In this document: one piece after another, positions 32,686 through 46,600 of the stretch
How the letters are laid out: every line of letters begins with the position of its first letter
Position numbering within the stretch: position 1 is the stretch's first letter
NCBI GenBank assembly: GCA_965116025.1
Contig: OZ220480.1
Coordinates: 576,001-640,000 of the forward strand
Direction of reading: 5' to 3'
Source of the DNA: an uncultured candidatus Porisulfidus sp.
Lineage (GTDB): Bacteria; Pseudomonadota; Gammaproteobacteria; Poriferisulfidales; Poriferisulfidaceae
Length of the DNA stretch: 64,000 nucleotides
Program-made: the position numbers and the translations under genes
The notes under the pieces: generated by a model
What the model saw: only the letters and a program-made list of their open reading frames with translations
Database searches by the model: none
Told to the model about the DNA's origin: nothing

Positions 32686-32745
32686 CTAGGCCGCTTTGCT
32701 CTGGGTTGTGAAGAAAGCGATCAGGTTTTCGAATTCCGACTCAAT
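32686..32745 (-). pseudogene. Displaced 3' tail of the res gene (IESEFENLIAFFTTQSKAA*)
   Basis: 20 codons ending just before the mod RBS/ATG. They continue res ...FTEVYE (43779) in frame if 32746-43778 is removed. Confidence 0.75.
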
Positions 32746-33186
32746 ACCCGCGCGGGTCTCGCGGATTACGGGCTATTAGCCCCTTGATGGTCGATCACCA
32801 GTCCTGCGCGGCCCGCGCTTACGCGCCCCGCGTTCGCCCTAATCAGGATCACCGGTTCTAGGCGCTCCCTCGCGCCTCGCGCCCGAACCGAGACCGCGTC
32901 CGCATTATCGGACGCGTGACGTGCAAAGCGTGAAGCCCGCCCGAATGGACGGCTAGCGAGTGAGAGGAATTGATGCCCGCGCCGGGTCAAAAGCCCGCGC
33001 GGATCACCTTTTCAGTGTGTGCGTTTTCCATGTAGCACCGGCGAGTCTAGCACACTCGCGGCGCCCTTAAAGCAGAACGCCCGACCTCGCGACCGGGCGC
33101 CCTATCCCTTTGCCGGCAATCAGGGTGCTACATGGACAGCCGGCGGGTGAAATCTTTTTCAGACTCCTTGCCCGAAAGTTTAGCAC

Positions 33187-33211
33187 AGGGTGTCACATTG
33201 TGTGACACCCT
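33187..33211. promoter_or_regulatory. Perfect palindrome (11-bp arms) next to an extended -10 on the minus strand
   Basis: agggtgtcaca-ttg-tgtgacaccct, with TGCTAAACT on the minus strand at 33177-33185. Confidence 0.55.
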
Positions 33212-33876
33212 CGCGCCGCCAGTGTGTCCTTTTTGCCACACTTCATTACATCCCGCTTCACGGCCAGCGGGATCGGCGCGAGACAACGCGGGCATACCAG
33301 CAGCTCCTCGATCCGCCGGCGTAACGTCCGCAATTCCTCTTCCTTTCGCGCGAGCTTCCCGGACAACTCCGCTATCAACGCCTTATCGCTGGCCGACGGC
33401 GCGGCGGCCTTCGCCCGCTTGCGACCGCCCCGCGTCCGCTCCGGACGCGGCGGCTTTCCATCCAGCTCGTTCATCGCGTCAAGCGCCGTAGGAAGGGAAA
33501 CGCCCATTTCCTCCGCTATCGCCCGCGCGGACGGCGCCGCCTCGCCCTCGCGCTCCGCCCGCCATCGGTATACCTGTATTCGCGTCTTGCACCGCTCCAG
33601 TTTGCTCACATGGCGCCGCCAGTCATTCACCCGCAAAACGAACGCCGCCGGGTCATCGCCGGCGAACTCGCGCATGCGCGGGGTCGGGTCTCTATAAAGC
33701 GCCAGCATGCACCGGTACCGATGCCAGCCGTCCAGCGCCTTGCCCTCGTATAGCGTGATCTCCACCGAGCCGTCGTCCGTCTTGATGCTCGCCTTCAGCT
33801 CCGCCCGGTCCGCCTCGCCCATCGTTCCGAACGCCGCCGATAGCGGATGCCGTTCAAGGATAGTAAGATTGTCCAT
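33193..33876 (-). CDS. Phage-type ParB-like N-domain plus HTH and coiled-coil protein
   Basis: HPLSAAF..M....ELKASI, ITLYEGKALDGWHRYR, F.GDDP.AFV..N..RRH, then SARAIAEEMGVS (HTH) and a CxxC near the C-terminus. Confidence 0.7.
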   Translation of the reverse strand: MDNLTILERHPLSAAFGTMGEADRAELKASIKTDDGSVEITLYEGKALDGWHRYRCMLALYRDPTPRMREFAGDDPAAFVLRVNDWRRHVSKLERCKTRIQVYRWRAEREGEAAPSARAIAEEMGVSLPTALDAMNELDGKPPRPERTRGGRKRAKAAAPSASDKALIAELSGKLARKEEELRTLRRRIEELLVCPRCLAPIPLAVKRDVMKCGKKDTLAARGCHTM

Positions 33877-34054
33877 GTCGCACTCCCATGCGATAGCGGC
33901 GCCGCGCATGGCCTGCCCGCGAATATAGGCCGGCGCTGGCGCCCATTAATAAACGGGCATTCCCAGACTCCTAGCCGCCACTAAACGGCCACAATTTTGT
34001 TAAGACGGGAAGAACATCCCGTCAAGCGCGCCAGCGTTGTCGGCGGCCTTGCCC

Positions 34055-43007: not shown

Positions 43008-43081
43008 CTGGGGGGTATCCAGGTAATGCCGCCGGATACCCCCCGGCTATATGTACTCGAAGCATATTCATCATGGATGCC

Positions 43082-43111
43082 ATCCTAGATGAAGTCCGCG
43101 CCATCTGTCAA
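43082..43111 (-). promoter_or_regulatory. Sigma70-like promoter for the packaging operon
   Basis: TTGACA-N18-TAGGAT on the minus strand, 75 nt upstream of terL. Confidence 0.55.
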
Positions 43112-43697
43112 TAGCCTAATTCGCCAAGCGAGATCGCGCCCCGCCAGGGGTATACCCCCCTCCCTCTCGCCGACAAAAAAAAAGTGTAGCGGTAAAGCGC
43201 ACTTTTCCCGGCTAGACACGTTTTGCCCGTGAAGCCCGCAGGGTTCCCTAAACTCGATAGATTTCCCGCGATCTCGCGCCCGCCTCGCGCCTCGCGCCCT
43301 CATTCACCCGCCCCGAACGCGCAAGCCCCCCACGCGCGATTTACGCGCCTTCCTCGATGCCCGAAATTGACCGAAAAGTGCAACTTTTCCGCGCTCGCGC
43401 CCGCCTCGCGTAGCTTCTCACCACCGCTCGGTAGCGGCTTGCCGCCGACCCGTATTGACGGATGCCATTGGCCGCCTAGCGATCGTTTCAGCACAGCGCC
43501 TAGCGCGCGGCTTTGGATAATTCCCTTCGCTTAAAGGCGAAGCGAGGAATTATCGCGCCGCTCGCTTAGGCGCGTAAGCGGCGTTGACCCGCCCGCAACG
43601 CGGGCGTATCTGTCCTATACCCTAATAGCGTGAAGCGATTCGGCAAGCCGGACTTCACTGGGCGCTACTCACGGCGGGCGCTTCGCCCTTTTCAGCC

Positions 43698-46600
43698 CTA
43701 TGTCATTCCAACGGCGGGCCTAATTTCCGCTTTCGCAGGCGCTTCGCGGCCTCTCATAAGGCGGCTTGGCCGGGCTTTCTCATACACCTCGGTGAACTCA
43801 GTGAAACTCCAACGTCCGAATTTTTCGAGCGCGTTCACACCAGGCACCCAATACGTATCCATGGTCGCCTTCTTCGCCTTGGCATCCTCTCCCCGATAGC
43901 CCTTGATTTCTACGACCAAGTGCAGAAGGTCATCAGGACCCCGTCCGTCATCCACCAGAACGATGAAATCTGGAATGTAGATTCGCGTCTTCGCTCCATA
44001 CCGATAGGGCACCTTGAAATCCAATCCATGATTCTTGATGTAGGACCGCACCTTTGAATGGGCCTCCGCGACTCGACAGAATTCGGCTTCCCAACTACTA
44101 TCGCATACGACCCAGTTAACGTGGCTTTGATCAGAGGCGGTCTTCCATAACGTTTTCTTTGATGTCGTGAAATTGACGTTGGTTGTAGATCCAACTGGGT
44201 TGTAAGGATCCAAGACCGCTTTGACTGGACGCGCGCCCACATTCTGGGCGACTATACCTTGCGTGATACGCTCGCAAGCCATGTCCGCGAGTGATGGATA
44301 CATCAGCTGCGCCATAGAGGTTCCACCTCTGCAGACGAGGTGATGATCCAGCCAGTGACGCGTGATTCGCTTGAGCTGACCGAACAAATAAACTTTTGGC
44401 TCTTCGTTCGAGTCATGCCATTTCGTTTCCAGTAGTCGCTTTGTCAGGTGATACAGCAAGGTAGTGCGACGCAAACCGCCCGTGTCGACCAGTCTCAGAT
44501 CCACTCCCTCACCGATTATGCCCTCGTTACGGATCTTAGTCGGCCCCACAAGATCGGGAGTTAACTCCAGCGTCGAATCTTCACTGAACGTTGCATGCAG
44601 AAAATCTTCTGGTAGATCGACTCGGTAGCCCGCGACACGTGGGAAACGGATTTCGCAAGCATCCCGCTCCGGCGTGATCGCCTTGACATGAACGGTCTTG
44701 CGAGGCGGTTGCGGTGGCGCGACCACGGGTTTCGCGGTAAAGTCAAAAGGAATTCCGAACACGTCCGCATACTCCACGGGAAGCATGCCCTCATCGTTCA
44801 ACTCATAGGATTGCCGGCGGAGCGCCCTGCCTACCGCTTGCTCGCACAAAAGTTGGGTGCCAAAAGCGCGAACACCGAGAACATGGGTAACGGTGTTGGC
44901 ATCCCATCCTTCTGTCAACATCGAAACAGAGACCACGCAACGGATCGTTTCGCCCAATTGTCCTTTTTTGCCAACAGTGTTCAGAACTTCGCGCAACAGG
45001 TCCTGATCGGCAATATTATCGCCGTCACGAATGTCGCCAGTGCGCCGAATGCGGTCGCGACGAAAGCGCTCAATTTCATCTACCGCGATCTTGTGAAAAC
45101 TTGGATCCAAGGCATCTCCAGATTCAATTTGCTCGCTATCGATCAAGAGAGTGCGCGGTCGCCCTAATGGAACACCATGGTCATCAAAATTTCGGAACAG
45201 GTCAAGATGGCCGTTGACTAGGGTTTGCGAACCATCCTGTTGCTTTTTATGGAATCCCGCGATGTAGTCGTAGATCAACTTTGAGGTCGATGTGTTGTTG
45301 CAGATCACGATAAAACAGGGAGGAACATCTATGCCAGCGTCGCACCAAAAGTCAAAGGTTTTTTTGTAGTCGCCATAGATAGCATCCAATGCTGTCTGCA
45401 ACATCACCGGAAGATGGCGAGGATCCTGATCGATTCTTTGGCGCCTTTTTTTTGGCATATCTGCACCGATATGCTCCCATAGATTGCGGTATTTCGGCAT
45501 GTCGCCATCAGCGATATTGTCGGCCACTGGCACTCGCGGCAATTTGACGATCCCGCACTCAATCGCGTCCATCAGCGAGAAGTCGCTGACAGTCCAAGGA
45601 AACAGCGTCCCTTCCGCATAACCCGATCCACTCAGGAAAAAAGGTGTCGCGGACAAGTCGATGGCGCGCGGGCCCACGGATGCCGGACGGTTCTCCGGCA
45701 TCCCTTTGTTGAGCGTGCGCGTAACCGCCTCCAATCCAGAAACCCAGAGCCTCGCGGCCTCTCGATTCTTTTTTGCCTCCTCGCGCGAATCACCCCGTAG
45801 CTGATCCCTTTCAACATCTGGCTTCTCCCGATAGCAGTGGTGCGCCTCGTCATTCAATATGAGCACGTTCCTCATGCCCATGAGCTTGGGCATCACCCGC
45901 TGGAGCATCTGCCCTTCCGTTTCTGTGGAACACAGATCCGGGCCGCGGCCCTGGAGAAACGCCCGACCGCCTTTCGATAAGTTCATCGTGTCTCGGAGCT
46001 TGAAGGCGTGATAGTTGGTGATCACGATCTGCGCGCGGTTCAAGTCATTCAACATGTCTCCGGGAACGAGCTCTCGACTTTGATAGTAGCTGTCCGGGTC
46101 ATTCGGCTGAAGAACTCGGAGACGGTCCTTGATAGTAATGCCCGGAGTGACGACGAGAAATCCCCGGGTAAAACGATGGCTGGACGGGTGGCGAACCGCG
46201 TTGATCGTCTGCCACGCGATCAGCATAGCCATGACCGTGGTCTTGCCCGCGCCAGTCGCCAGTTTCAGCGCCAGCCTTTCCAGACCCGGGTTGGCTTGCT
46301 CGTTCACGCCACGTATGTGATCAAGAAACTGTTTTCCGGTTTTATCAGAGGGCGCGACTTCGGTCAGCCAAATCACCGTCTCGACGGCCTCAAGCTGACA
46401 AAAGAATGGGCGGTAATGGCTGAATTTATGGTGATGCCAGTGATCCAGCAGATGCTCCGTCTCCGGTGTTACTCGAGATTTCAACAGGTTTCGATTTGAC
46501 CTCCATCTGTCTACAGCGCCACGAACGTTATTGATGGCATCCTCCAGTTCGTATTCTTGGCCATCGATTTGTCGCGTTGGCTCATCTACAGCCAAATTTC

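Follow-up and report, generated by a model that had tools for sequence, protein, structure and literature searches.

Phage satellites that build capsids of their own include the phage-inducible chromosomal islands of the capsid-forming kind (cfPICIs), for which the SatelliteFinder model, as set out in the part of PMC10085698 that deals with it, names 11 core components and requires at least 9; by the counts in that part, 48 of 969 cfPICIs are integrase-less. Satellites without an integrase are also on record in PMC10690885, among them MiniFlayer of Streptomyces and elements from virion DNA, and the passage on them regards integrase-less satellites that sit in chromosomes as probably inactivated. 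Here we describe a block of foreign DNA that splits res, the restriction gene of a type III restriction-modification system, in an uncultured candidatus Porisulfidus sp. (Poriferisulfidaceae), a presumed symbiont. The locus lies in a stretch of 64,000 nt (contig OZ220480.1, positions 576,001 to 640,000 of the forward strand), hereafter the window, whose positions we use throughout unless the 2.02-Mb single-contig genome (G000) is named. The insertion is phage-satellite-derived, and it looks like a rare, non-specific capture of DNA, not a new kind of jumping gene.

The block shares with cfPICIs its own large terminase (TerL), HNH endonuclease, HK97-type capsid and portal genes, a lack of tail and lysis genes, and a size near the 14-kb median given in the cited part of PMC10085698; its acidobacterial relatives add a tyrosine integrase. 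It differs in that 4 of the 11 core components described there were matched, as judged by Pfam and PHROG in place of SatelliteFinder's own profiles. An integrase, an AlpA/MerR regulator, a primase-replicase, a small terminase subunit (TerS), a protease or decoration protein and a head-tail adaptor or connector went undetected in the block, both among the open reading frames (ORFs) of at least 30 aa in its ends and among its larger ORFs. It differs also in its gene order (TerL-HNH-capsid-portal), in a cassette of RTX genes that makes up half of it, and in the absence of an att site. The block thus resembles a cfPICI head module in its working, yet it falls outside the cfPICI definition. MiniFlayer-type satellites, as characterized in the relevant passage of PMC10690885, likewise combine terminase, portal, capsid and HNH genes with no integrase, but they are reported there as free and non-integrating, whereas the DNA of the block is chromosomal.

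Further kinds of system bear comparison with this locus. Prophage-like elements that are excised during development or in 'active lysogeny' split genes such as sigK and comK, and they carry a serine or tyrosine recombinase together with att cores. The block is similarly phage-derived and gene-splitting, and its precise removal would restore the gene, but it has neither a recombinase nor att cores. Fragments moved by lateral or generalised transduction are capsid-sized linear pieces that run from near the packaging genes into adjacent DNA, as may have been the case for the block; transduced DNA is normally fixed through homologous recombination. Finally, illegitimate integration of foreign DNA leaves joints of 0-1 nt and no duplication, as seen here, and a double illegitimate joint is rare.

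The block splits res exactly between codons

The interrupted res frame (ORF 43698-46850, minus strand, 1050 codons) reads ...FTEFTEVYE and then continues through 26 unrelated codons to a stop; the foreign tail, KARPSRLMRGREAPAKAEIRPAVGMT, is present in none of 119 Res homologs. The protein carries the ResIII domain (PF04851; 36.3 bits, cut-off 22.5, E 6.9e-9). The profile of the C-terminal endonuclease domain (PF19778) scores 20.9 bits, under its cut-off of 23.4, with precomputed Pfam assignments placing PF19778 on many close homologs. On the res (minus) strand, the res-proximal joint reads ...ACC GAG GTG TAT GAG / AAAGCCCGG... at 43779/43778 and the mod-side joint reads ...CCCGCGCGGGT / ATT GAG TCG GAA TTC... 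at 32746/32745. The composition shifts along with the sequence, from a GC content of 0.50-0.57 in res and in mod, the adjoining methyltransferase gene, to 0.59-0.68 in the block.

To locate the empty site we used the best 119 (P0002-P0120) of about 8000 Res homologs, which are 70-77% identical over residues 780-1024. The 11 positions past a conserved GRW.F.E are ungapped in all 119, with F T D V Y E I E A D F as the commonest residues; the window contributes F T E V Y E ahead of the block and I E S E F beyond it, and the tail beyond the block is 19 residues long, against 18-48 in the homologs. The nearest homolog found in a genome (G020, 68% identical) reads VYEIQSDF, and its mod ATG lies 2 nt past the res stop. 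Since the homolog positions continue across the joint, Res residues are neither missing nor duplicated, and the tail is the native end of Res.

A first-pass annotation made from the letters of the window had proposed just such a seamless insertion at a codon boundary, followed by a native Res C-terminus and the mod ribosome-binding site. Both proposals hold: the alignment of Res homolog C-termini that it recommended fixes the empty site with no gap or doubling in 119/119, the tail matches the homolog consensus, and its stop codon TAG (32686-32688) overlaps an AGGAG, with the mod ATG at 32675, 8 nt on. The limits it gave (32686-43790) do not survive: beyond the true block (32746-43778) they had enclosed the native res tail, 60 nt including the stop codon, at one end and another 12 nt of res at the other. 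The crossover, then thought to be uncertain by a few bases, is narrowed to a 1-nt ambiguity: compared with the rebuilt empty site, the left junction agrees for one base (A) past GAG and the right junction agrees only from ATT on.

The junctions consequently have a single base in common, and neither a target duplication nor an att core is present. No clear direct repeat had been seen at the flanks and none is there; the weak 'GTAT(T)GAG' likeness recorded earlier stems from the GAG-ATT-GAG repeat that the target itself contains, to which the element adds two bases. With no duplication and a shared core of at most 1 nt, typical DDE transposition and long-core tyrosine integration are excluded, as had already been argued. 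The codon-boundary position, taken alone, has a chance of 1 in 3.

Gene content and relatives of the block

All genes of the block lie on the res strand (Table 1). TerL has 329 library matches at E<=1e-30, and the homologs of the capsid protein measure 367-443 aa. The 112-aa protein found no match in Pfam, PHROG or NCBIfam, and the ParB_N-like protein has no direct Pfam match, an atlas search pointing to viral ParB_N clusters. NCBIfam repeat matches of the RTX genes fall far under their cut-offs, and each gene has 41-45 tblastn matches within the genome. The IS630 fragment shows 94% amino-acid identity to G000 884655-884951 and 46% to full IS630 copies. Integrase, transposase, resolvase and reverse transcriptase families in Pfam, PHROG and NCBIfam went unmatched by the block ORFs, including the small ORFs of the non-coding ends, and PF00589 and PF00239 in particular matched none of them. 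Neither PHROG nor Pfam revealed a tail or holin gene among the block proteins tested, the RTX genes having been compared with Pfam and NCBIfam only.

Table 1. Coordinates of the inserted block, its genes and ends, and the interrupted restriction-modification genes, in reading order on the minus strand
Feature	Position in window	Strand	Evidence
Type III res gene, native codons 1-1024	43779..46850	-	Pfam ResIII; RE_endonuc slightly under cut-off
Inserted block, 11,033 bp, 1-nt ambiguity at res-proximal joint	32746..43778	-	junction sequences, GC shift, X1 graph branch at 43778/43779
26 foreign codons and stop closing the res frame within the block	43698..43778	-	ORF 43698-46850 ends ...VYE-KARPSRLMRGREAPAKAEIRPAVGMT
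771-nt non-coding end upstream of TerL, in which GGCGCGAG units recur	43008..43778	-	no ORF with family match
17-nt motif GGGCGCGAGGCGCGAGG, copy 1	43283..43299	-	genome motif count
Large terminase (TerL), 521 aa	41442..43007	-	Pfam Terminase_6N; PHROG 9
HNH endonuclease, 107 aa, packaging-associated type	41122..41445	-	Pfam HNH; PHROG 144; TerL neighbour in relatives
HK97-type major capsid protein, 447 aa from inner start; ORF reaches 41234	39759..41102	-	Pfam Phage_capsid; TIGR01554 under cut-off
Portal protein, 344 aa	38725..39759	-	Pfam Phage_portal; PHROG 12; relatives' ORFs here 346-359 aa
112-aa protein of no family	38362..38700	-	C-terminal part opens 880-kb-collinear stretch; 90% DNA identity to G000 880217-880348
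Four tandem RTX-repeat (calcium-binding nonapeptide) genes: 37236-38231, 36388-37191, 35513-36343, 34641-35468	34641..38231	-	Pfam HemolysinCabind
IS630-family transposase N-terminal HTH fragment, 98 aa	34055..34351	-	Pfam HTH_29/HTH_28/HTH_23
ParB N-terminal-domain-like protein, 238-aa ORF (matching collection entry 227 aa)	33193..33909	-	homologs source-named ParB-like, few with PF02195; PHROG 21315, function unknown
Non-coding end beside res tail, 447 nt	32746..33192	-	holds 232-nt repeat 32779-33010, 17-nt motif copy 2 at 32868-32884, palindrome
Native res tail IESEFENLIAFFTTQSKAA and stop	32686..32745	-	fits homolog consensus, positions 7-11 past GRW.F.E
mod (type III methyltransferase), N-terminal part	31458..32675	-	Pfam N6_N4_Mtase profile positions 1-111; mod of G020 alignable from its start
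IS630-family insertion sequence splitting mod	30287..31457	-	three copies at least 99% identical, ends CTAGTGTAGTGTA...TACACTACACTAG
mod, C-terminal part	28731..30227	-	Pfam N6_N4_Mtase profile positions 171-218

Relatives of the head genes were found through the capsid protein, which has 29 matches in a large protein collection, the best 63% identical and most others 31-47%. An alignment of 17 of the 29 brought up 10 loci (L031-L040) in metagenome-assembled genomes (MAGs) of Acidobacteriota, with at most two loci per genome. TerL, capsid and portal genes occur in the same order in 8/10 of these loci, an HNH match is also present in 5/10, and a tyrosine integrase lies 3-6 kb off, on either side of the module, in 8/10. 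The order in L032 runs integrase, 203-aa ORF, topoisomerase-like 309-aa ORF, 101-aa ORF, TerL, HNH, capsid, 104-aa ORF, portal. The block is without the genes that L032 has upstream (the integrase, two ORFs of unknown family and the topoisomerase-like ORF), and neither the 101-aa ORF upstream of TerL nor the 104-aa ORF in the capsid-portal gap has a counterpart in the genome by tblastn.

These TerL-HNH-capsid-portal modules thus look like small integrase-bearing capsid-forming satellites, a compact element family outside the cfPICI definition that is common to Acidobacteriota MAGs and the present bacterium. Single-protein scans with TerL returned nothing from genome, viral and metagenome contig collections, nor did a scan of viral contigs with the capsid protein, and TerL is found in 0/52 other genomes of the order at E<=1e-10. 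The capsid alignment also includes three IMG/VR fragments, which have no terminal repeats and are uninformative on termini. Among the acidobacterial loci, the L032 module is flanked by IS256/Mutator-type transposases, and in L039 TerL is present twice, at a spacing of 8 kb.

One half of the block is similar to the lineage's own chromosomal DNA

Window positions 38520 to 33548 are collinear with G000 880217 to 885464, at 88-90% identity in the non-repeat parts, and that chromosomal locus sits amid housekeeping genes and more RTX genes. Closer to the mod-side joint, a 232-nt non-coding repeat (32779-33010) is 79% identical, with 1-nt indels, to G000 759829-760060; these are its only two copies in the genome, and it occurs in 0/15 other genomes of the genus. 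The 760-kb copy lies between an autotransporter barrel gene and a SNF2-like helicase ORF, upstream of the latter. Together, the collinear cassette and the repeat make half of the block resemble chromosomal DNA of this lineage, and the clearly phage-derived part of the block is its left 5.3 kb only.

Two observations concern the chromosomal counterparts. Besides its RTX genes, the cassette at G000 880217-885464 contains an ORF like the 112-aa one, the IS630 N-terminal fragment again and a ParB_N-like paralog of 252 aa, whose similarity to the block gene is confined to the first 103 residues; the two ParB_N-like genes are mosaics. A second TerL, 44% identical to that of the block, lies at G000 806333-808747 with an IS630 copy inside, internal stops and an adjoining RTX gene. 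It has no capsid, portal or HNH gene beside it, and a short way downstream of it lie dapF, a DUF484 gene and a gene for a tyrosine recombinase that may be xerC.

A close variant of the block exists in another context

We examined two read sets, X1 and X2, which are possibly the assembly's own source. X2 short-read contigs bridge both junctions (32301-33637 and 43123-45276) at the depth of the flanks, and depth is similar in block and flanks (about 32-74 against 51-56 outside repeats). In X1, contigs at a depth of ~28 enter the block, over 44 nt and 30 nt, and show 0 differences from it there; the depth is 28.4 for the res contig and 27.6 for the mod contig.

X1 also contains a variant of the block, at depth 470-540 along 32835-43607, in an excess of ~17-fold over these flanks. 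The variant is 99% identical (35 differences in 3167 nt, depth 489), its RTX array is shorter by 1730 nt (about two genes; window 35302-37033), and a 109-nt stretch (window 33882-33992) is swapped for 132 nt. The res contig at 28x starts at 43749 and measures 11,861 nt, of which the first 3252 nt fall on the analysed stretch, and it merges with nothing deep; extrapolated past 47000, it would take in the genes for the TonB receptor, DAO and PPIase. That a contig of this length never joins deep sequence places the deep variant in another host or replicon, and the same depth pattern speaks against a near-identical chromosome present at high depth.

The X1 graph branches at 43778/43779 and at 32759/32760, the latter 14 nt inside the res joint. 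This offset means one of two things: the variant has a difference at 32759, or the last 14 nt, palindrome included, are peculiar to the res copy. No contig among the joints listed represents the empty site (43779 joined to 32745). In the protein collection, a TerL variant with 515/521 identical residues (99%; P0151) comes from a 23,925-nt record, longer than the block, and portal and HNH proteins identical to those of the block are on a second record.

Both ends of the block are non-coding. The 17-nt motif GGGCGCGAGGCGCGAGG occurs exactly twice in the 2.02-Mb genome, once at each end and in direct orientation, and a perfect 12-nt palindrome, ACCCGCGCGGGT (32746-32757), abuts the mod-side joint, such palindromes having a genome-wide frequency of 5.5e-4 per position. 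The palindrome is found at one block end only, and a single insertion site is known. Terminal inverted repeats and a junction core in common are lacking; the genome contains no further copy of the block's left end, and its right end (32746-33200) occurs in 0/15 other genomes of the genus. Folded as RNA, the 275-nt right end does modestly better than shuffled sequences (z -2.4 and -2.2). A P-nucleotide (hairpin-opening) origin of the palindrome is not supported: the 6 nt beside res do match, as reverse complement, the 6 that follow, but the X1 divergence lies at 32759/32760, not at 32751/32752.

Origin of the block

The explanation we tentatively prefer, while giving it somewhat less than an even chance, is that the block arose by a one-off illegitimate capture of a linear piece of DNA of roughly capsid size. 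On this reading the block does not move autonomously. It is a mosaic of three parts: (i) 43778-38521, with the 771-nt non-coding leader followed by TerL, HNH, HK97-type capsid and portal genes; (ii) 38520-33548, the RTX-gene cassette that matches the genome's own 880-885 kb locus; and (iii) 33547-32746, 0.8 kb with the repeat shared with 760 kb. Packaging sites of HNH-type phages are usually upstream of TerL. The piece could plausibly have been one capsid-load of ~11 kb, packaged from upstream of TerL through the head genes and into donor DNA past the portal gene, in which case the tyrosine integrase and other genes that relatives normally have on the far side of TerL would have been left behind. 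It would then have entered res through a single event of non-homologous, non-site-specific joining, by end joining or template switching at 0-1 nt of microhomology.

Such a capture would explain why the integrase side is missing, why the make-up is mosaic and why the joints have 0-1 nt, as well as a possible 14-nt filler, and the X1 split 14 nt inside the res joint fits a junction-specific filler. If the capture did occur, the locus is a clean natural case of phage-packaged or satellite DNA fixed without a recombinase, and one in which a restriction system was knocked out in a presumed symbiont's genome rich in insertion sequence (IS) elements and their remnants.

Several points weigh against this explanation. 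A single base difference at 32759 may produce the 14-nt offset; by our estimate, the chance of any difference within those 14 nt is ~15%, given ~1% divergence. No Ku homolog was found in the genome, which makes classical end joining unavailable and calls for rarer Ku-independent routes. Non-coding ends (771 and 447 nt) that share a genome-unique 17-nt motif are what would be expected of a circular element opened at a fixed point, and the intact head genes, with a TerL variant that differs at 6/521 residues, suggest a live element and not debris. The element may also have carried the RTX cassette as cargo of its own, so that the cassette need not be donor chromosome. With one insertion site known (n=1) there is no basis for judging site specificity, and neither a linear nor a circular intermediate was seen.

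Alternative explanations

The absence of Ku, the ends that share the 17-nt motif and the intact, conserved head genes favour, instead of capture, a discrete and still-mobile satellite-like element that has fixed ends and is inserted without duplication by an unrecognised enzyme, an explanation that we consider possible, though on the unlikely side. Its enzyme could come in trans from a helper phage or other host, or could be an unannotated protein of the block itself, such as the ParB_N-like, 112-aa or HNH/TerL protein. The two non-coding ends also share iterations of GGCGCGAG, the perfect palindrome stands at the mod-side joint, and the 99% variant is present both at 17-fold flank depth in X1 and on a second record. 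Integrase-less satellites are documented, in the parts of PMC10690885 and PMC10085698 that treat them. On the other hand, no candidate enzyme had a match in any library, one half of the block runs collinear with loci of this genome's chromosome, and terminal inverted repeats and a junction core are absent. There is also no second site: TerL is missing from the 52 order genomes, and the single-protein scans of three collections came back empty. The graph branch at 43778/43779 is predicted by any model and is no proof of a fixed terminus. Were fixed ends and self-movement true of the block, it would represent a phage satellite with an undescribed, duplication-free integration.

A bolder version, which strikes us as quite unlikely, is that an active integrase-less capsid-forming satellite of this symbiont integrates scarlessly by an undescribed route and disarms the host via its restriction gene. 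The route might, for example, be the ligation of terminase/HNH-made ends into a break in the chromosome, or depend on the action of a ParB_N-type protein at the shared 17-nt motifs, and the 17-fold excess of the 99% variant in X1 would then be a replicating or packaged form.

Insertion by a Y1-HUH transposase (IS200/IS605), IS91 rolling circle, IS110 bridge recombination or serine recombination at a 2-bp core would leave no duplication either, and most of these were the mechanisms favoured by the first-pass annotation. The terminal palindrome at one end and the eight IS110 transposase genes of the genome could be read in this sense. However, profile searches of the genome for recombinase and repair families gave 0 matches to Y1_Tnp (PF01797; control positive in 6/14 genomes) and 0 to Resolvase (PF00239; control positive in 12/14), and the junctions overlap the rebuilt site by 1 nt, not by the 2 nt of a serine recombinase's central dinucleotide. 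The Y2_Tnp profile (IS91) has no match in the genome, a result that carries no weight, its control being silent everywhere. The eight IS110 matches (PF01548) all lie outside the window, leaving the block without a DEDD transposase gene; the copies are ~1.4 kb long and 90-99% mutually identical (e.g. 479030, 987141, 1415120), and their ends (TGATGGGATGG... / ...GCGAACCATATAT) are unrelated to those of the block (AAAGCCCGG... / ...CGCGCGGGT). An 11-kb cargo without the cognate gene would be atypical for any of these systems, and we regard this group of mechanisms as improbable; the earlier suggestions of HUH, IS110-type and serine-recombinase insertion are accordingly not supported. The IS110 site at 1415120 has a tandem partial duplication of 650 nt.

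Integration by XerCD at a dif-type site, as in integrative mobile elements exploiting Xer (IMEX), was also rejected: the junctions share no dif-like repeat, the genome's own dif site not having been located. The genome has two tyrosine recombinases (PF00589), one at 813.5 kb beside dapF and the DUF484 gene and the other at 1.25 Mb; in the families searched, the genome showed no recombinase that would fit this insertion.

That an integrase-bearing satellite entered at an att site and later lost both integrase and att by deletion appears very improbable. The relatives do have tyrosine integrases, and the genome is rich in IS elements and remnants. The block, however, lacks both the integrase and the flanking direct repeat of a tyrosine-integrase island, with no repeat of any kind at its flanks, and because its removal restores res to the residue (119/119), the ends of such a deletion would have had to coincide precisely with the two res boundaries.

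That unrelated contigs were wrongly joined in the assembly has a still smaller chance: RTX repeats assemble poorly and the deep variant co-exists in X1, but X2 contigs cross both junctions at flank depth, the ~28x X1 contigs enter the block without a difference, and the two res parts fit to the residue. Least probable of all, to a degree that makes it negligible, is an intron-like element spliced at the RNA level or placed by group II intron-type retrohoming, as the first-pass annotation had also entertained from the seamless in-frame position, since an Rfam scan of 31000-45000 found no family at E<=1 and hence no ribozyme RNA, the genome has 0 matches to reverse transcriptase (RVT_1), and the block is 11 kb long with its own phage genes on the same strand and stops the res frame after 26 foreign codons.

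Neighbouring genes

In the window, res and mod adjoin in the same gene order as in G020, and the mod ORF carries the N6_N4_Mtase domain. The IS630-family element that splits mod has further copies at G000 806.6-807.7 kb and 964.2-965.3 kb. With the block in res and the IS630 element in mod, both genes of the restriction system are interrupted. On its other side, res is adjoined by a C5 cytosine methyltransferase ORF (46996-48105) whose Pfam match starts at profile position 80 of 324, so that the ORF may be N-terminally truncated.

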